Shown here piece by piece: positions 51,836 to 61,145 of a stretch of 64,000 nucleotides of DNA. The DNA lies in NCBI GenBank assembly GCA_963718575.1, contig OY970358.1:322172-386171 (forward strand). The letters are read 5' to 3'. Origin of the DNA: an uncultured bacterium. Its GTDB lineage: Bacteria; Patescibacteriota; Minisyncoccia; UBA6257; 2-01-FULL-56-20. The translations under genes were made by a program, and so were the position numbers. The notes beneath the pieces are model-generated. The model did no database searches and had not been told where the DNA came from. It worked only from the letters and a program-made list of their open reading frames with translations. The first letter of the stretch is position 1. Every line of letters begins with the position of its first letter.

Positions 51836-51922
51836 GGAGACGTGGCCGAGTGGCTGAAGGCAGCATCCTGCTAAGATGTTAGGGGAGAAATCCCCTCGAA
51901 GGTTCGAATCCTTCCGTCTCCG
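51836..51922 (+). tRNA. tRNA-Ser (anticodon GCT)
   Basis: GGAGACGTGGCCGAGTGGCTGAAGGCAGCATCCTGCTAAGATGTTAGGGGAGAAATCCCCTCGAAGGTTCGAATCCTTCCGTCTCCG. Long variable arm. Confidence 0.85.
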
Positions 51923-52038
51923 CAGACAAGGCGATTGTATCGTAGCGATCGTCTTATATAGGTTTTTAGTGCGACCGACATATATGAGGGCACCAGGACG
52001 CCCGAACTTTTTGGTGTTAAAATGAAACTGCTACGCAT

Positions 52039-53073
52039 ATGAAATTAGATGATGTATACGCTGCAGCAGACAAATTGAGGCGATCTGCTGCAGCCATGCA
52101 AAAAGAAGCGAAAGCAGTAAAAACTGCTTGCTTGGATATCAACACATCGTGGAGCCAGTCGGCTCTCACTCGGCACGCAAAATTCTATTTCCGCAACTAT
52201 GAAGAGCCTCCCGCAACTAGTCGGTTCAATATTGAGTGGGGCCTAATTCATGGAATTCCCGACGGCTGGGAAGAAAGATCCAATGAAGAAGTTTGCCAAG
52301 AAATTGAAAAAAGGAGCGGAGCATCTCTCGATGATTTTAAAGAAAAAGTTACGAAGCTCGAAGACGAATTCGAGGCTTTAAAGCGAGACACTTCTCTTGT
52401 GCTGATAGAGGAAGGAATCGCGGACGTTTCGGAGATTGAGGGTTTTAAGTTTGAGAACGCAACGGATTATTTTAATACGTTAAATCCGACTACTTATATG
52501 ACGCGTGACAGTGCGGCCATCACCTCTGGAAGGTATATCGCACCCCACATTTATTTCGAGGCCGTCGCGATGTCAGCTCTAGGGATCGAAGGGCAGCTTG
52601 ATGAATTCATATATAAGATTAAAAAGCTCGGCGTAGGGACTGGCACTCCTCAAAAGAGCAACGATTTCTGGAATACGATCCACCCAGCGATAAGATCAGT
52701 TTCGGAAAAACAATTTAAGAATGGACATTATCTCGATGCCGTTCGTTCTGCGTTCATCGAATTCAATGATAAAGTAAAGCAAAAATACAAAAAAGACGCG
52801 GGTACAGAGGAAGATGGATTCAATTTAATGAAATTAGCTTTCGGCGACTTTTCAGCATCTAATTCAAGCTTCAACGGAACCGTGAAATACAGCCTGGCAG
52901 ATCTATCAACGGATTCAGGAAAGAATTTCCAAAAAGGTTTTTCGCTCATGTCGGCTGGAGCAGTTCTCGGCTTAAGAAATCCACGAGCCCATGCGAACGT
53001 TATGGACGAGAAGGACGAAGCTATTCACTTAATTTTTTTGGCAAGCTGGCTTATGAGAACTGCGTTTCCATAA
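52039..53073 (+). CDS. Two-domain protein: a novel N-terminal region plus a C-terminal HEPN-like domain (Rx4H: LRNPRAH), resembling the TIGR02391 'Abi C-terminal' family
   Basis: C-terminus ...FWNTIHP...NGHYLDAVRSAFIEFNDKV...FSLMSAGAVLGLRNPRAHANVMDEKDEAIHLIFLASWLMR. AT-rich. Confidence 0.55.
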   Translation: MKLDDVYAAADKLRRSAAAMQKEAKAVKTACLDINTSWSQSALTRHAKFYFRNYEEPPATSRFNIEWGLIHGIPDGWEERSNEEVCQEIEKRSGASLDDFKEKVTKLEDEFEALKRDTSLVLIEEGIADVSEIEGFKFENATDYFNTLNPTTYMTRDSAAITSGRYIAPHIYFEAVAMSALGIEGQLDEFIYKIKKLGVGTGTPQKSNDFWNTIHPAIRSVSEKQFKNGHYLDAVRSAFIEFNDKVKQKYKKDAGTEEDGFNLMKLAFGDFSASNSSFNGTVKYSLADLSTDSGKNFQKGFSLMSAGAVLGLRNPRAHANVMDEKDEAIHLIFLASWLMRTAFP

Positions 53074-53179: not shown

Positions 53180-54250
53180 ATGGCTGTCTCTATTAAAAAT
53201 ATCAATAAGTACGTGCAGGCCATAGCCCAAAGCGGACTCACTATTTATGATCCCATCGAAATCGGCGATCCGAATCTTTGGATTCCATCTCAAGAACTCG
53301 AAGTCCTACTGAATCAAAAACTCAAGGGTATATCTCTCGACGGACTGCCTCTCCGGACGCGATCCAAAGTCGTTAAACAAAAAGTTTGCGAATCTCTTGG
53401 CTATCCCACGCCGGAAACTTTCGAGAAAACACAGCCGCGCTTTCCGGGCCAATGTTTCGACACCTATATTCAAAAATCAAACAATCTACAGATATGGAAT
53501 GAGGAATTATCACCCACAAGAAGGTACGTCCTTATTAAGGTAAGCGAAAAAGATTTGATTGAAAAAGTTCGAGTGGTAAGCGGAGACACGCTTGCCGTCC
53601 TTGATACCACGGGAACCCTCACCCAGAAGTATCAGGCGAGACTTATTGTCGGCCAAAAGATTTCCGAATTGATATCATCGTCAGATACGAGCCGCGTTAA
53701 AGAAATCACCAATGGCTTCGATGAGAAAAAGGTAAACTTGGCCGATCCTACTGATCATGCCGATGGCGAAAATCTTTTACCGATTAAACTTATTCATGAA
53801 CGACTCTCGAAAATTATTGGGAAGACTTTCTCGGATTCAGGCCATGACCAAGAAAGAAATCGCGGAGGTTTCTTACATAAGTTAGTCTGCGAATCCCTTG
53901 GCTATAAAACCTACCATGATAATGGACAGTTTCCTGATGTACCAAATCAGCTTTTAGAGATCAAATTGCAGACCTCGCCAACGATTGATTTAGGACTCGT
54001 GAACCCTGACAGCAAAACTGCTTTGGATACGCCAAAGATCAATGGAAAACAGATACGGCATTGCGATGTTAGGTATGCACTTTTTTATGCCAAAATCGCC
54101 AACAAGCATGTAACGATAACAAATTTTTTCCTCGTCACCGGAGAAGAATTCTTTTCCCGATTCCCGAGATTTGAGGGAAAGATTATTAACAAAAAGATTC
54201 AGATACCCTTACCCGCCGATTTCTTCGAGTTCAATCCGAAAGCCATATAG
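53180..54250 (+). CDS. Candidate restriction endonuclease of the MutH/Sau3AI-like PD-(D/E)xK type with an internal domain duplication
   Basis: D-x6-E-x-K motif (PDVPNQLLEIKLQ) in the C-terminal half. Repeated VCESLGY(P/K)T modules at about aa 70 and about aa 245. Convergent with, and overlapping, the methyltransferase gene. Confidence 0.5.
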   Translation: MAVSIKNINKYVQAIAQSGLTIYDPIEIGDPNLWIPSQELEVLLNQKLKGISLDGLPLRTRSKVVKQKVCESLGYPTPETFEKTQPRFPGQCFDTYIQKSNNLQIWNEELSPTRRYVLIKVSEKDLIEKVRVVSGDTLAVLDTTGTLTQKYQARLIVGQKISELISSSDTSRVKEITNGFDEKKVNLADPTDHADGENLLPIKLIHERLSKIIGKTFSDSGHDQERNRGGFLHKLVCESLGYKTYHDNGQFPDVPNQLLEIKLQTSPTIDLGLVNPDSKTALDTPKINGKQIRHCDVRYALFYAKIANKHVTITNFFLVTGEEFFSRFPRFEGKIINKKIQIPLPADFFEFNPKAI

Positions 54251-55917
54251 ACCCGCGAATTTAATTTCGCCTCAAGATCGTTTGTTTTTGCGCTGGGCGA
54301 GATTTTATACATTTGCCTTGCAATAACAACAATCTCTTTTGAGATTTTTAGATCGGGATTCGGCAACGGAAAATTCTCAACATATTGAGTAATGAAACGA
54401 CGCCGGCCTGAATATAGCTTGTTATTAAAGCTATGATCATAAAATTCTTCGATGAAGCTTGAGTTGGCGACTGCCAAGGCTAGCCAAAGTAAATCAGATT
54501 CTTTTTTATCGCTCAACGAAAGCCAGTAGCAATCGCCATTCACGACGCTCCCGCTTAGGTCCATCCAGAACACTGGCTTTTCCGAGATGTCCCGAAAAAC
54601 GAGCTTGGGCTGCTTCCAGGCATCAGGGTTATGAGGAACCCATATCTCAAACCAGTTGCGATTCGACTCTGCAATATAAGTCCTACTTGCGAGCTGTTTT
54701 TTATGGGACTCGAGATATTTTTTAACGATGGGAAATTTCGCAAGATCAATTGCCTTCCTTACCCCATCTTTTACCTCGTGTGGATAAATCACATACTTGA
54801 TCGGCTCATTGGCCTTAAAACGCCTAGCTACATGATGTGTAATTAATGGCTGCAGGATTTCGGGCAACCGTCCCGAAAATTTTTCCATATCTGCATCGGA
54901 GAGAATAAAAACGTTGTCGGCAGTTGTTTTTATGCCAACCCTTATCTTTCCGATATCCTTAAATGTCAGCTTCGTTTTTGATCTCACTTGCTCGAGCCAA
55001 TCGTCAGCTTGCTGAGTCGCCAATCTCCAGACATCGCCATGTTTCTTTCCATGATCCAAGGTTCCGTGGAGCACCTTAAATAAATCGCCATCGCTTTTCG
55101 CCAGAGCATTGAAGACTAAAGTAGGATTGGGATTTTTAGTTCCTTCCTGAAGATAAATTGAGGTAAATTTTGGCTGGTGAACCTCATCTGGCATGCCTTT
55201 TGCTTTCTCAAGTAATAAAACTGCCGGAAGTACGGCTGCTTCAAACAAGCGGGTGTCACCGAAATCCCAAACATGTAAAATATTAAAACTGGACAATAAA
55301 TTTTTCCTCACCGTAACCCCCGATTTCGTTGTCAAAAATCGGTTCGACACTATGATGCCTAAAATCCCATTTGATTTTAAAATCTTTTCGATGCCCTTAA
55401 GGAACGCATGATAAAGATCTACCCTCCCGGAAAGGTTGAATTGTTTTGCTAATCGCTTTGCCTTTTCAGATCCCATTACCTGGGTTCTTACGTAGGGAGG
55501 GTTTGCAATAACAATATCGAATCGCGAAGCTTCAGTCGCTGGCGAGAATAGTGATTCATTATAGAAGTCTAGAACCCACTCCAGAAAATCTCGCTTCTCG
55601 ATCCTCAGAGAAGTCGAAGGAAAATTCTCACTAATTAACTTTTGTGAGGCATTTACAGCATCCTGACTGATATCACAGCCGAATACCTCTAGATTGTTAA
55701 GGTTTCTATCATGCGCGAGCTTAATCAAACTAAGCAAAAGCTCTCCGTCGCCTACCGCAGGATCAATTATTCTAATCTTGTGCTTTTTATCCAAGATCCT
55801 TGTTTCCAACTGATCCAAAATTTGAGCTGCGACAAAGTCCGCTAAGGAAGTCGGCGTGTAATGAGCCCCCGTATCCTTTCTTAACTGCATATCAAATTGT
55901 GTATCCAAATTTGGCAT
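54199..55917 (-). CDS. N6-adenine DNA methyltransferase (gamma-class, Eco57I/TaqI-like) with a C-terminal target-recognition region
   Basis: TGAHYTP (motif X). IIDPAVGDGELL (motif I). IVIANPPY (motif IV). 572 aa. Confidence 0.85.
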   Translation of the reverse strand: MPNLDTQFDMQLRKDTGAHYTPTSLADFVAAQILDQLETRILDKKHKIRIIDPAVGDGELLLSLIKLAHDRNLNNLEVFGCDISQDAVNASQKLISENFPSTSLRIEKRDFLEWVLDFYNESLFSPATEASRFDIVIANPPYVRTQVMGSEKAKRLAKQFNLSGRVDLYHAFLKGIEKILKSNGILGIIVSNRFLTTKSGVTVRKNLLSSFNILHVWDFGDTRLFEAAVLPAVLLLEKAKGMPDEVHQPKFTSIYLQEGTKNPNPTLVFNALAKSDGDLFKVLHGTLDHGKKHGDVWRLATQQADDWLEQVRSKTKLTFKDIGKIRVGIKTTADNVFILSDADMEKFSGRLPEILQPLITHHVARRFKANEPIKYVIYPHEVKDGVRKAIDLAKFPIVKKYLESHKKQLASRTYIAESNRNWFEIWVPHNPDAWKQPKLVFRDISEKPVFWMDLSGSVVNGDCYWLSLSDKKESDLLWLALAVANSSFIEEFYDHSFNNKLYSGRRRFITQYVENFPLPNPDLKISKEIVVIARQMYKISPSAKTNDLEAKLNSRVYMAFGLNSKKSAGKGI

Positions 55918-57356: not shown

Positions 57357-57857
57357 TTACGGCAACGAAGCAATGGGTGACGATGTAATCCTTTCGAAAG
57401 CCTTGGAAAATATTTCTCGCTGCCTGTCTATTTCCGGCTGATTTATCTCTGCGATTTTTTCTCCTTCCTTATATTTTCCAAACTCTCTTTCATAATCTCT
57501 CGTTGCGCGACCATCAAGGTGAACAATCGAATTACGAATTAAAAAAATTTCTCGAATCGCGGGGTCATAACACTTTCTTAGCACCTTTTCGGAGCGGTCT
57601 TGAAAGCAAATTTTATGGCGCGCCGGATCAGCTGTTTTAAGATCGCGTACGAATTTCTCCCAAGCCATGCAAAACATTATCGGTATGGACTGGCGAAGGT
57701 ATGCCGCGTACAGCGGAGTGGATCTTGGCCGCGAAGCAGACATGGAATCGCCTTGAGCCAGGTCAGCACTATTAACAATGTCAGCCGATAACGTCGAATC
57801 GACTTTCTCATAATACTCGCGGATACTATCGAGCTCTTCCGAAAACGAGTACGCCAT
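57357..57857 (-). CDS. Hypothetical protein (166 aa) with a HEPN-like Rx4H motif (RNSIVH)
   Basis: ...IREIFLIRNSIVHLDGRATRDYE... Start overlaps the stop of the upstream gene (operon). Confidence 0.4.
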   Translation of the reverse strand: MAYSFSEELDSIREYYEKVDSTLSADIVNSADLAQGDSMSASRPRSTPLYAAYLRQSIPIMFCMAWEKFVRDLKTADPARHKICFQDRSEKVLRKCYDPAIREIFLIRNSIVHLDGRATRDYEREFGKYKEGEKIAEINQPEIDRQREIFSKAFERITSSPIASLP

Positions 57858-59173
57858 TAGAGATTCGGGGGCAAATTGGAGTTCGGGTACCCCCTCTTAA
57901 TCCTCTCGTAGATAGCGGCCGCAGGTGCTTCGAGTTCTTTCCTCCGATCTTCCGGAGCGAGCTTATACGAAGCAAAGATTCTTGGCCAGTCTCCCACATA
58001 AGCTCCGAGGTAAGTTATTTTTTCGACATGAGTTAGTATGTCGATGAGGCTATCTGGGGCAACCTCAGCAATTTTCTCGACGATCTCCTGAATTCCGTTG
58101 AGCCATACGCGCCTCTCTTTTTCAAGATGCGACATCCCACCTTCTAAATATTCCAGCATCTGCCTTGTGAACTGCACGCCGTCTCCCGGCGCTATCCGTA
58201 GAACGGCTTCGACTAAAAATTCAAATTGGCCGACAGGCTCGTATTGGAATTTTCCTTCAAAAAATAAGGGGATATATTTTTTGAACAGTTCATAATTTTC
58301 TCCATTTTCTTCGAGCTGCTTCCATGTTATCCAAATGAGGGTAGTCTTGAGTCGAGGTGCCTGCGGAACATCCGAACTTGAATCTTTGATAAGCTTTTTC
58401 AAAAAATCTCTGAACCATTCTCCGTGAAAAGCAGCATCGAATTTCGGCCTATATTCCGCAAAGAAAAGAGCGTACGGCGTGGCGTGCTCCGTGAGATAGT
58501 CAGGACGAAGGACCCCGCTTGCGTCATAAAAAATCGTGCTCAATAGTTCCTGAGCCTGCGCTTCGGTGAGAGTGATTCTCGGCTTATCGAATACGCCCAC
58601 CACGCTTTCTAAAACGCGGGGATATTTAGTATTATCCCGGAGCATCTTCCACGCGAGAGCCACGGCCCGGGATTTATCGGCATCGGTAAATCCAAATGGC
58701 GTGCCATCTTTGTTCTGCTTGGCATACATATTGATGGTCAAGCCAGAAAGAGCTGCGGGCACTTGCTGGCGAACGTATAGCGATTCATCGCTAGCAAGCT
58801 CTTCGAGGACACTTAATACCCGTTGGTAATATTCTGTTTTAAACGTAGCTACGATTTTTTGAAGCAACCAGGGCACGCTTCCCCGTATGGTGTAGATATT
58901 ATTGATGTCTTCTCCTTTTTCAATTTTTTCGTTGAGATTGTCAAAACCCGGCACAGGATCTGGATCGCGTGCGTAAAGTTCGGCAACCCTTAACGCCTTT
59001 TCCACGAACTGTCCCTCTTGAACCAAATCGGCAAGAATCCAAATTATGTCGAACTTGCTATATTCCTTTTCCAAAAGATTCTCCCAATCGGGATCCTCTA
59101 GCTCCCTTAGAATTCTCTTTTTTAAAATATCTCGGTAGGTCATTACCCTGATGTTACTCCAGAGAGCATGCAA
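57857..59173 (-). CDS. Hypothetical all-helical protein (438 aa), first gene of a two-gene operon
   Basis: No recognisable catalytic motif. Helical repeat-like composition. Confidence 0.45.
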   Translation of the reverse strand: MHALWSNIRVMTYRDILKKRILRELEDPDWENLLEKEYSKFDIIWILADLVQEGQFVEKALRVAELYARDPDPVPGFDNLNEKIEKGEDINNIYTIRGSVPWLLQKIVATFKTEYYQRVLSVLEELASDESLYVRQQVPAALSGLTINMYAKQNKDGTPFGFTDADKSRAVALAWKMLRDNTKYPRVLESVVGVFDKPRITLTEAQAQELLSTIFYDASGVLRPDYLTEHATPYALFFAEYRPKFDAAFHGEWFRDFLKKLIKDSSSDVPQAPRLKTTLIWITWKQLEENGENYELFKKYIPLFFEGKFQYEPVGQFEFLVEAVLRIAPGDGVQFTRQMLEYLEGGMSHLEKERRVWLNGIQEIVEKIAEVAPDSLIDILTHVEKITYLGAYVGDWPRIFASYKLAPEDRRKELEAPAAAIYERIKRGYPNSNLPPNL

Positions 59174-59183
59174 TAGCCAAATA

Positions 59184-59245
59184 TTGCGTTATATGAAAAC
59201 AAGCCCCGAAATTCGGCGGCTTGTTTTCATATAACGCAATGACTC
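59184..59245. terminator. 22-bp perfect inverted repeat (bidirectional terminator-like hairpin)
   Basis: ttgcgttatatgaaaacaagcc-ccgaaattcggc-ggcttgttttcatataacgcaa. Confidence 0.7.
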
Positions 59246-59252
59246 CACCCTA

Positions 59253-59921
59253 CTATTCGAATGCCGGATTCACATAGTCGAGATCCCACACGCCCGGCAG
59301 GATCTGCAGTTCGAGCGTCGCTTTATCGAGGCTCCAGTTGATCTGCGATGCGTCGTCTGTCGTAAGCGTCGCCCGGTACACCATGCCGTCGCTCGTGTTC
59401 CCGTACTTGTCGGTGAGGGGAAGATATCCCGTTACCGTCGCGGTTTCTATCTTCTGGCCGCTCGTATAGACGGCGATGAAAACATCGGCGGTTTCCGATT
59501 CAAGGCCGTCCTTCGTCAGACCGTTCGACAGATTATTGTCGCCGTTGAATTCTACAGTAACGTCCCATCCGCCTTTTACTGCGGGATCCGGTTCGACATC
59601 AACGCTCCTCAGCTTCGGCTCGTTGCTTTGGTTCGTCTGCCCCTGTAGGACGTTCCCCACGATCGCCTTGATCTGCGAAGCGGGATCCTGCGGAACGTTA
59701 TTCGCAACAGTCGTCGGCGCGGTGGTCTGAGGCGCCGTTGTTTGATTGGGCGTTATCCCTATTCCGATTGCAAAGAGGATGAATCCACCGAGTCCGAACG
59801 TCAGCGCGATTTTCGTCCGCGTATTCTCCTTAAAGAGCTTCTTGAGCGGCTCCGGTCTGATCAACGCACCGATCGTGAAGAGCATCGAGATAATTCCCAC
59901 TGTTCCTAATAATGCTCCCAT
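59253..59921 (-). CDS. Membrane-anchored hypothetical protein (222 aa)
   Basis: Two N-terminal TM helices. Extracytoplasmic Thr/Asn-rich region. Confidence 0.45.
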   Translation of the reverse strand: MGALLGTVGIISMLFTIGALIRPEPLKKLFKENTRTKIALTFGLGGFILFAIGIGITPNQTTAPQTTAPTTVANNVPQDPASQIKAIVGNVLQGQTNQSNEPKLRSVDVEPDPAVKGGWDVTVEFNGDNNLSNGLTKDGLESETADVFIAVYTSGQKIETATVTGYLPLTDKYGNTSDGMVYRATLTTDDASQINWSLDKATLELQILPGVWDLDYVNPAFE

Positions 59922-60005: not shown

Positions 60006-60887
60006 TCACAAACCTTGGCGATACAGCTCGTCCAAGGTCTTGCCATCAGCCGTTTTCCACGTCATCCATCCGTTCGTGGAATAACCGAGAATAAGGTCGC
60101 CCGCCGCACTCGGCGTCGTAAAACTGTAATCACGGGCGAAGGCATATCCATCGCCGCTTTTTTCGACGATACCTTCTGCTAAAAGTTTCGCGATAAGCTT
60201 TTCATTCCGTTCGGCAACCGCAGGTGATTGCTTTCCGCTGATCGTCGATCCTTGGTAGACGATAAATCCCTCATTCGTCATCCGGGCGGTACCTTTCGCG
60301 GTGACGTCTTTGTTCTGAACCATAAACAGCGGATTCTCGTGATCGGCAACCGCTTTCGCTTCGAGCTTCTGGAGTATCGGGTAGCCGACCGTGCCGAGAA
60401 GTAATCCGATATTTTTTACGAATTCCTCCATCACGGGAATATCGGCCTGCGGGAGGTGCGGAATGAGCGATCCCGTGCTGTTCTTAAGCACATAACCGAA
60501 ATGCTTCGCCTCGTTTGCAATCTCGACGCAGCGCGATTCGAGATATTTCACATGCGCCTTCGTCAGGCTCTCGTCGCTTGAGACGAACGCGATGGTGGTA
60601 TACCAAAAATCCTTGCCTTTGTCGTTGTTGTGCGTCGTCAATCTGTCAAAAAGATTTTCCGCTTCGCCGATATAGGCGGATGCGACGAGGTTTTCTTCGA
60701 ATTCGCGGCCAAACAAAAAATACACCGCTGGCTGTCGCGCGACGTCATCGCTACCCATCTCCTTCAATTTGTTGCGGGGGAAAATGAGGCCTTGCCCGGT
60801 CCAGCCCGCGAGCGAGATTATTTTCCTTCCGTCCGGTTCGCCGTCGACCAGAAATAGTGTAATTTTCTTTCCTGAATTTTGAGCCAT
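60006..60887 (-). CDS. GIY-YIG nuclease-domain protein with a C-terminal DUF4357-like region
   Basis: PAVYFLFG...AYIGEAENLFDRLTTH (GIY-YIG). C-terminal GYSTNGWMTWKTADGKTLDELYR. Confidence 0.65.
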   Translation of the reverse strand: MAQNSGKKITLFLVDGEPDGRKIISLAGWTGQGLIFPRNKLKEMGSDDVARQPAVYFLFGREFEENLVASAYIGEAENLFDRLTTHNNDKGKDFWYTTIAFVSSDESLTKAHVKYLESRCVEIANEAKHFGYVLKNSTGSLIPHLPQADIPVMEEFVKNIGLLLGTVGYPILQKLEAKAVADHENPLFMVQNKDVTAKGTARMTNEGFIVYQGSTISGKQSPAVAERNEKLIAKLLAEGIVEKSGDGYAFARDYSFTTPSAAGDLILGYSTNGWMTWKTADGKTLDELYRQGL

Positions 60888-61145
60888 GGCGATTGAGCAA
60901 TTTCATCGCCGACCCGAAGTTCTTAGAAACTCTGAACCCCGTGCCAGCTAGGTCTTGCGACCCCATACCAGTTTCCCGATATGGCCCGATAAAGAGTTGC
61001 TGAACGCGGGGTTCAGAATTCTTTATCGGGGCTTTGGTCCATATCTCCGCTGGAAGCGGAGGGTTAGGCTGGGATTAACCCTATGAAATTGTTGAATTTA
61101 TCATAATCCGTCGGGCAGAATTACACAAACACACACTGAATATCT

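Follow-up and report, generated by a model that had tools for sequence, protein, structure and literature searches.

What do two adjoining genes of a Patescibacteriota genome do, when they sit beside the recombinase of an integrated element and resemble no nameable family? The pair occupies positions 57,357 to 59,173 of a 64,000-nucleotide (nt) stretch of contig OY970358.1, from an uncultured bacterium (GenBank assembly GCA_963718575.1); this whole stretch is called the window below. An earlier note, made from the letters of the window, had described a two-gene operon and proposed it as a previously undescribed toxin-antitoxin (TA) or defence pair. We find that the large and small genes are one conserved cassette, that modelling assigns the larger product with high confidence to the HEAT-repeat alpha-solenoids at the level of fold, and that the smaller product probably belongs, as a divergent member, to the HEPN-domain proteins. 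Taken together, the pair is a plausible candidate for an undescribed HEPN-based conflict module. The two genes and their junction are located as follows.

57857..59143, minus strand: large gene, 428 amino acids (aa), HEAT-repeat alpha-solenoid of an uncharacterised family, with a reading frame open up to a TTG at 59173.
57357..57857, minus strand: small gene, 166 aa from its ATG, probable divergent HEPN-domain protein and putative ribonuclease (RNase) effector.
57855..57859, minus strand: TAATG stop/start overlap, read from the sequence as ctcTAATGgcg.

The proposed operon is borne out by this junction, in which the stop of the large gene and the start of the small gene, meeting at 57857, have one base in common; such an overlap, as read from the sequence, indicates translational coupling of the two genes. 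The length of 438 aa first given for the large protein is that of the minus-strand open reading frame (ORF) 57857..59173 counted from the TTG, an ORF that does exist. The true start is almost certainly the ATG at 59143, giving a product of 428 aa and leaving the TTG probably unused, because an identical 428-aa product (P0167) is present among public gene calls, because the equivalent methionine is the start in all large-protein homologues, and because in L001, a relative of 90% identity, an indel of 1 nt separates TTG from ATG and the reading frame 5' of the ATG is therefore not conserved. Comparison of the window with the same relative gave ratios of non-synonymous to synonymous substitution (dN/dS) of 0.049 for the large gene (dS 1.13) and 0.061 for the small gene (dS 0.74); with values of about 0.05, both genes are real and under strong purifying selection.

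Separation of the homologues in other genomes had been named in the earlier note as a sign that would speak against a functional pair. Ten large-protein homologues formed the starting set, and their contigs, together with two more distant ones and two contig scans, gave 12 distinct lineages (the window, L001, L002, L004, L021, L005, L007, L009, L010, L012, L025 and L026), counted as those readable past a stand-alone large-gene homologue. Relatives of the small protein were collected as neighbours of these homologues; the small protein, used by itself as query in a word-indexed homologue search, recovered no sequence but its own. Co-localisation holds throughout: in all 12 lineages a gene matching the hidden Markov model (HMM) of the small family lies directly 3' of the stand-alone large gene on the same strand, with junctions lying between an overlap of 23 nt and a gap of 12 nt. 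Pairwise identities of the large and small proteins are correlated (r = 0.83, Mantel p <= 2e-4), with mean identities of 41% for the large protein and 24% for the small one, which is the faster evolving. No ORF family adjoining the pair recurs across lineages, and this rules out a common third gene on the upstream side.

One apparent counterexample was discarded. In a close relative (L015), disruption of the large gene beside an intact small gene was considered as an argument against an antitoxin role and rejected as a probable assembly error, since this sequence differs from the window by three homopolymer indels and no mismatches over 4,958 nt and such indels are typical of long-read assembly error. 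Apparent frameshifts in L010, an assembly of the same long-read kind, are also probably homopolymer errors; in these two assemblies the frameshifts touch the large gene, the small gene and the recombinase.

As the earlier note had anticipated, neither protein matches a housekeeping family, nor any curated family above threshold (Pfam, PADLOC, PHROGs, NCBIfam). The large protein has no match in any of these four collections, and a profile of its family found none among PDB sequences. Its helical nature is confirmed by an AlphaFold2 model built from a 10-sequence alignment, which is all-alpha and confident (predicted local distance difference test, pLDDT, 89.9; predicted template modelling score, pTM, 0.85). 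The model consists of stacked antiparallel helix pairs forming a solenoid and is structurally similar to bona fide HEAT proteins, with symplekin and IntS4 among its top structural neighbours. Neither a DNA-binding domain nor a nucleotidyltransferase match was detected for the large protein, and no STAND or other NTPase domain was detected in any member of its family. An exhaustive search of 1.84 billion cluster representatives with the large-family HMM returned 343 relatives (clusters at 50% identity), the stand-alone members of which measure ~400-445 aa.

The same HEAT domain is also the C-terminal part of two classes of fusion proteins (P0040-P0164), whose N-termini are unrelated to each other and belong to no curated family. 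The first class (~700 aa, 53 representatives) has ~270-aa N-termini with an invariant E...(P)D...E-x-K pattern. In the second (~950-1200 aa, 28 representatives), members of ~1160-1200 aa carry the pattern G..F.G...Q...LE....DF.L.....KI(I/V)CE.K at the extreme N-terminus, a segment that the one ~950-aa member inspected (P0094) is without. Both patterns look, in sequence, like PD-(D/E)xK nuclease motifs. Pfam returned isolated weak restriction endonuclease (REase) matches for the N-termini of the first class (DpnII-MboI 0.005, Eco47II 0.05) and no REase match for those of the second, and a profile search of the ~700-aa class N-termini against PDB found nothing. The distribution of the domain suggests a regulatory module that may be paired with interchangeable nucleases, and its sharing with N-termini that look like nucleases is in keeping with the modular build of immune systems. 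The fused extensions were also considered as relatives of the small protein and rejected as unrelated, and the two fusion loci inspected (L018 6001-8103 and L019 6001-9501) contain no small-family gene. At L019, a 276-aa gene with a weak AHJR-like REase match (E 0.011) precedes and overlaps the 1166-aa fusion gene.

Two segments of the small protein bear on its identity and on its possible contact with the solenoid.

57519..57536, minus strand: R108-N-S-I-V-H113 (R-x4-H), from the translation, inside a wider E-x4-R-N-x3-H block.
57786..57845, minus strand: N-terminal amphipathic helix F5-x2-E-L-x2-I-x2-Y-Y, from alignments and AlphaFold2.

It was the R-x4-H motif that had first prompted a HEPN-type reading. 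In shuffled versions of the small protein R-x4-H arises in 18% of cases and R-x4-6-H in 45%; a lone R-x4-H is thus not significant, and the weight rests on its conservation across relatives. The motif is kept in 11 of the 12 lineages, as R-N, R-H or R-D (R-[NHD]-x3-H), while H113, E103 and W66 are invariant in the small-family alignment (A4), and E-x4-R-N-x3-H is the best-conserved segment of the family. Profile searches point the same way. The window protein matches Pfam HEPN_RiboL-PSP at E 0.0028 and 18 bits (gathering score 28.4); among nine small-family relatives, five have this family as their top match (best 4.2e-5, 24 bits) and two match HEPN_Cthe2314; the family consensus matches HEPN_RiboL-PSP (3.5e-4) and HEPN_MAE_28990, and the consensus of the Arg-containing subset matches HEPN_Cthe2314. 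Since these sub-threshold matches fall repeatedly in the HEPN clan, they lend independent, if weak, support to the HEPN-type reading, alongside the conservation of the motif. The small protein had no match in PADLOC, PHROGs or NCBIfam, and a profile search of its family against PDB sequences found none. We consider it likely that the protein has a divergent HEPN fold, and it is most likely a metal-independent RNase and putative toxic effector that would act through the R-N-x3-H site.

The AlphaFold2 model of the small protein, of low confidence and from a weak alignment, predicts that residues 5-34 form a helix, with low pLDDT over residues 29-49. The N-terminal helix is conserved in pattern, F5 varying hardly at all; after it comes a linker that is rich in Ser/Thr, variable in sequence and modelled with low confidence. 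Docking helices of this kind are bound by solenoids of the HEAT and ARM types, and the arrangement suggests that helix and linker could form a tethered docking element for the groove of the HEAT protein.

How might such a pair work? The cassette would travel among uncultivated bacteria as cargo of temperate phages and of small integrative elements with a serine recombinase. The HEAT solenoid would bind the small protein, with the N-terminal helix on its flexible linker as a plausible docking element, and would keep the RNase from acting or from assembling correctly; a trigger, for instance a phage protein that attaches to the solenoid, would set it free. RNA cleavage would then halt growth, with abortive infection or a TA-like outcome. 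The HEAT protein most likely has a regulatory role, possibly as the trigger sensor, and the small protein is most likely the toxic effector; the 'large sensor or immunity protein' first proposed proves to be a HEAT-repeat solenoid, with a putative sensor or immunity function. In many type II TA operons the partner gene comes first and the small toxin-like gene second; the gene order here is the same, with the large partner first. Overall, we judge the chances to be evenly balanced that the pair is a HEPN-based conflict module of TA-like or abortive-infection type.

Several known systems offer partial likenesses. With HepT/MntA (type VII TA) the pair would share the way of working of a small HEPN toxin. 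The partner there is an MNT nucleotidyltransferase; the HEAT solenoid of 428 aa that takes its place here would not be expected to neutralise by AMPylation. HepT has R-x4-H-x-Y with an AMPylated Tyr, whereas the small protein reads RNSIVHLD, with Asp two residues after His at a position that is variable in the family; no significant sequence match of the small protein to HepT was found. In architecture, the nearest precedents are two predicted partnerships of HEPN and alpha-solenoid proteins, AbiU2 with a Sel1-repeat gene and LA2681 HEPN with TPR (Anantharaman et al. 2013, PMC3710099), in which a HEPN RNase adjoins or is fused to a helical-repeat protein in defence or mobile contexts. They differ in repeat type (HEAT here) and in HEPN family, neither AbiU2 nor LA2681 being among the Pfam matches obtained, and these associations are likewise mechanistically uncharacterised. 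RiboL-PSP-HEPN (PF18735), the best-scoring Pfam family for the window protein, for five of the nine relatives and for the family consensus, yet at 18-24 bits against a cut-off of 28.4, is described as distantly related to AbiD/AbiF and as occurring in fusion with endoRNase L-PSP or in an operon with ParB (PMC3710099); at the loci inspected, neither an L-PSP domain nor a ParB gene was found with the pair. With the Avs/STAND NLR-like proteins the shared idea is trigger recognition by helical repeats joined to a swappable nuclease effector, which here would be HEPN in trans or PD-(D/E)xK-like in cis; no family member has a STAND or other NTPase domain, and this likeness is a functional analogy only.

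A literature search found no description of a HEAT-plus-HEPN system, and Pfam, NCBIfam, PADLOC and PHROGs hold no model for this family. The conditions that the earlier note had named as refuting (homologues apart, a housekeeping match, a non-conserved motif) all came out in favour of its interpretation, which is thus supported, the TA or defence function being a putative one. If that interpretation is right, the pair would be a two-component HEPN system regulated by a HEAT solenoid in place of an MNT protein, a small antitoxin or an NTPase; reuse of the same solenoid with other nuclease-like domains would add a class of sensor to bacterial immunity, and the pair would give a first handle on the conflict systems of phages and integrative elements in Patescibacteria or candidate phyla radiation (CPR)-type hosts. 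A wider reading, which we put forward tentatively and regard as rather doubtful, is that the HEAT domain represents an unrecognised family (343 clusters, no curated model) which serves one modular immune system throughout as its sensor or regulator; phages and mini-integrative elements of Patescibacteria and of further uncultivated bacteria would carry that system, wired to HEPN in trans or to PD-(D/E)xK in cis and maybe linked to the LOOT RNA described below.

The genomic setting informs the alternatives. In the window, whose contig is 0.88 Mb long on record, the pair lies beside the integrase of an integrated phage-like, defence-rich element. A tRNA-Ser(GCT) gene ends at 51923, after which GC content falls from ~0.55 to 0.42, and this tRNA gene is likely the integration site and the edge of the island. 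From there the order is a Ymh-type HEPN gene, an REase gene, a methyltransferase (MTase) gene, a large serine recombinase gene directly adjoining the pair, the pair itself, a gene for a 222-aa protein, PDC-S14, LOOT RNA and a terminase-like ORF.

51836..53073: tRNA-Ser(GCT), followed at once by the Ymh-type HEPN protein, 344 aa, C-terminus matching Pfam Hypoth_Ymh at 5.7e-21, with a weak PADLOC Aga_HEPN match.
53180..54250, plus strand, and 54199..55917, minus strand: complete type II restriction-modification pair, PADLOC REase_II at 1e-147 and Eco57I/TaqI-type MTase_II at 5e-198.
59253..59921, minus strand: 222-aa protein, sole family match phrog_8263 (3e-8, function unknown).
60006..60887, minus strand: 293-aa protein, two genes upstream of the pair, PADLOC PDC-S14 at E 1.2e-91, phrog_12629, GIY-YIG and DUF4357.
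60950..61070, minus strand: LOOT RNA (RF03000), 71.6 bits, 76 nt past the terminase-like ORF.

The Ymh-type HEPN gene is a second HEPN-family gene of the same island. The REase and MTase genes are convergent, with 3' ends overlapping by 52 nt in a region of GC content 0.42. The terminase-like ORF is so named for its homology, by blastp, to a gene of L007 that matches Pfam Terminase_6C; its own Pfam match is negligible (E 0.25). Only in the closest relatives (L001 and L014-L017) is the gene for the 222-aa protein conserved 5' of the pair, which places it outside the conserved cassette; a hydrophobic N-terminal stretch in this protein was judged by eye from the sequence.

Across the other loci, the company of the pair changes. 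In the neighbour comparison, 7 of the 12 loci have a serine recombinase; one is also present in L004, L025 and L026/L027, and it is directly adjacent to the pair in the window, L001, L002/L003 and L026/L027. Three further neighbours, a terminase, a small ORF beside the terminase, and N6/N4 MTases, are each shared by 4 of the 12 compared loci. Directly 5' of the pair L009 has a KAP NTPase (matching PDC-S20, QatA and PifA); in L007 a HEPN_Cthe2314 gene, a PIN gene and a diversity-generating retroelement adjoin it, with no serine recombinase in that 17-kb locus; and in L025 a SocA/Panacea-domain gene is near it. At L026 1827-10442, a serine recombinase overlaps the transfer-messenger RNA (tmRNA) gene and is followed by the pair, LOOT RNA, three small ORFs, a tRNA, a second recombinase and a second LOOT, an arrangement suggestive of a tandem of small integrative elements, two in number, at the tmRNA gene.

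In 8 of the 12 distinct loci, the orphan Rfam LOOT RNA (RF03000) lies <=6.5 kb from the pair, with scores of 62-94 bits. Outside the window it was located as follows.

LOOT RNA in L004, 7664-7785; in L005, 5943-6065; in L007, 1601-1722; in L009, 2034-2152.
LOOT RNA in L010, 4805-4924; in L025, 8941-9057; in L026, 6093-6239 and 10322-10442.

It has no fixed position or strand with respect to the pair, often lying on the 5' side of a same-strand gene block, and LOOT may mark the family of serine-recombinase elements rather than the pair; an orphan RNA gains a genomic context. Relatives of the pair were found in metagenome-assembled genomes (MAGs) of Candidatus Falkowbacteria and Candidatus Nomurabacteria (Patescibacteria group) and in an unclassified MAG. 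The pair is patchy and rare, with eight loci across two large contig scans, and a Foldseek search of viral structures returned nothing significant.

Several observations weigh against a HEPN-based conflict module. Every HEPN match in Pfam falls below the gathering score, Thr replaces the motif Arg in one clade (L009 / P0014-17, T-N-x-L-K-H), and hhalign found no relation between the small family and the neighbouring Cthe_2314 HEPN protein of L007. The nuclease label of the fused N-termini comes from motifs only, Pfam being weak for the first class and silent for the second. PADLOC-DB v2 has no match for the window proteins, the fusion relatives or two distant small proteins, and no homologue was found in sequenced phages, in plasmids (tblastn) or in an IMG/VR scan. 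A type II antitoxin is usually small, labile and DNA-binding, and neutralises its toxin by direct binding; a 428-aa partner without a DNA-binding domain is atypical in that role. Proximity to the integrase may just reflect a cargo slot, and the conflict role is a prediction from sequence, context and models.

Which alternatives, then, deserve weight? The one that survives best, itself unlikely, is a pure addiction (post-segregational killing) TA module that stabilises the element, with the HEAT protein as neutralising partner and no phage sensing. It draws on the TA-like gene order and tight coupling, and on the position of the pair beside the serine recombinase of integrative elements, some of them very small, as in L026, where the layout runs from tmRNA through recombinase, pair and LOOT to a few small ORFs. 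However, the large, stable-looking solenoid (pLDDT 90) is unlike labile antitoxins, and the fusion of the same domain to nuclease-like N-termini in one polypeptide fits a toxin/antidote logic poorly. Addiction and a conflict role are not mutually exclusive.

More improbable is that the small protein is a non-nuclease helical adaptor whose Arg and His serve binding or structure, for example in an anti-defence or regulatory complex. The sub-threshold score of every HEPN profile match, the clade lacking the Arg and the low confidence of the small-protein model all speak for such an adaptor, and HEPN domains that lack activity have been described (Anantharaman et al. 2013, PMC3710099). Yet the top matches of independent members recur in the HEPN clan and are not random, the His is invariant, and R-[NHD]-x3-H is the most conserved segment of a family averaging 24% identity, all of which speaks against an adaptor.

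Least probable of the three is a role in the life cycle of the phage or element, as a serine-integrase accessory or directionality factor or as an RNA-processing complex of scaffold and nuclease on element transcripts: a serine recombinase within a few kb of the pair in most loci, adjacent in those listed above, the likeness to symplekin and IntS4 as HEAT scaffolds of RNA endonuclease complexes, and LOOT RNA within 6.5 kb in 8 of 12 loci speak for it, but L007 has no serine recombinase in its 17-kb locus, the pair is placed and oriented differently towards recombinase and LOOT from locus to locus, HEAT similarity is generic, and the absence of the pair from most related elements, with its patchy and rare occurrence, is typical of accessory cargo and not of a core function.

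The pair is bounded upstream by a striking repeat.

59183..59240 (arms 59183-59205 / 59218-59240), no strand: perfect 23-bp inverted repeat, upstream boundary of the pair.

It lies 13 nt past the stop of the preceding 222-aa gene, and its folding energy is -51.9 kcal/mol (z = -9.5). Described in the earlier note as a strong 22-bp hairpin terminator, it is indeed a strong hairpin; its perfect arms measure 23 bp, it has no U-tract, and a terminator scan made no intrinsic-terminator call there. The hairpin of L001 retains its pairing through one compensatory change from G-C to U-A and differs in the loop. The phage-like L001 contig, with its 90% identical pair, also carries a fluoride riboswitch at 1048-1109 (54 bits).

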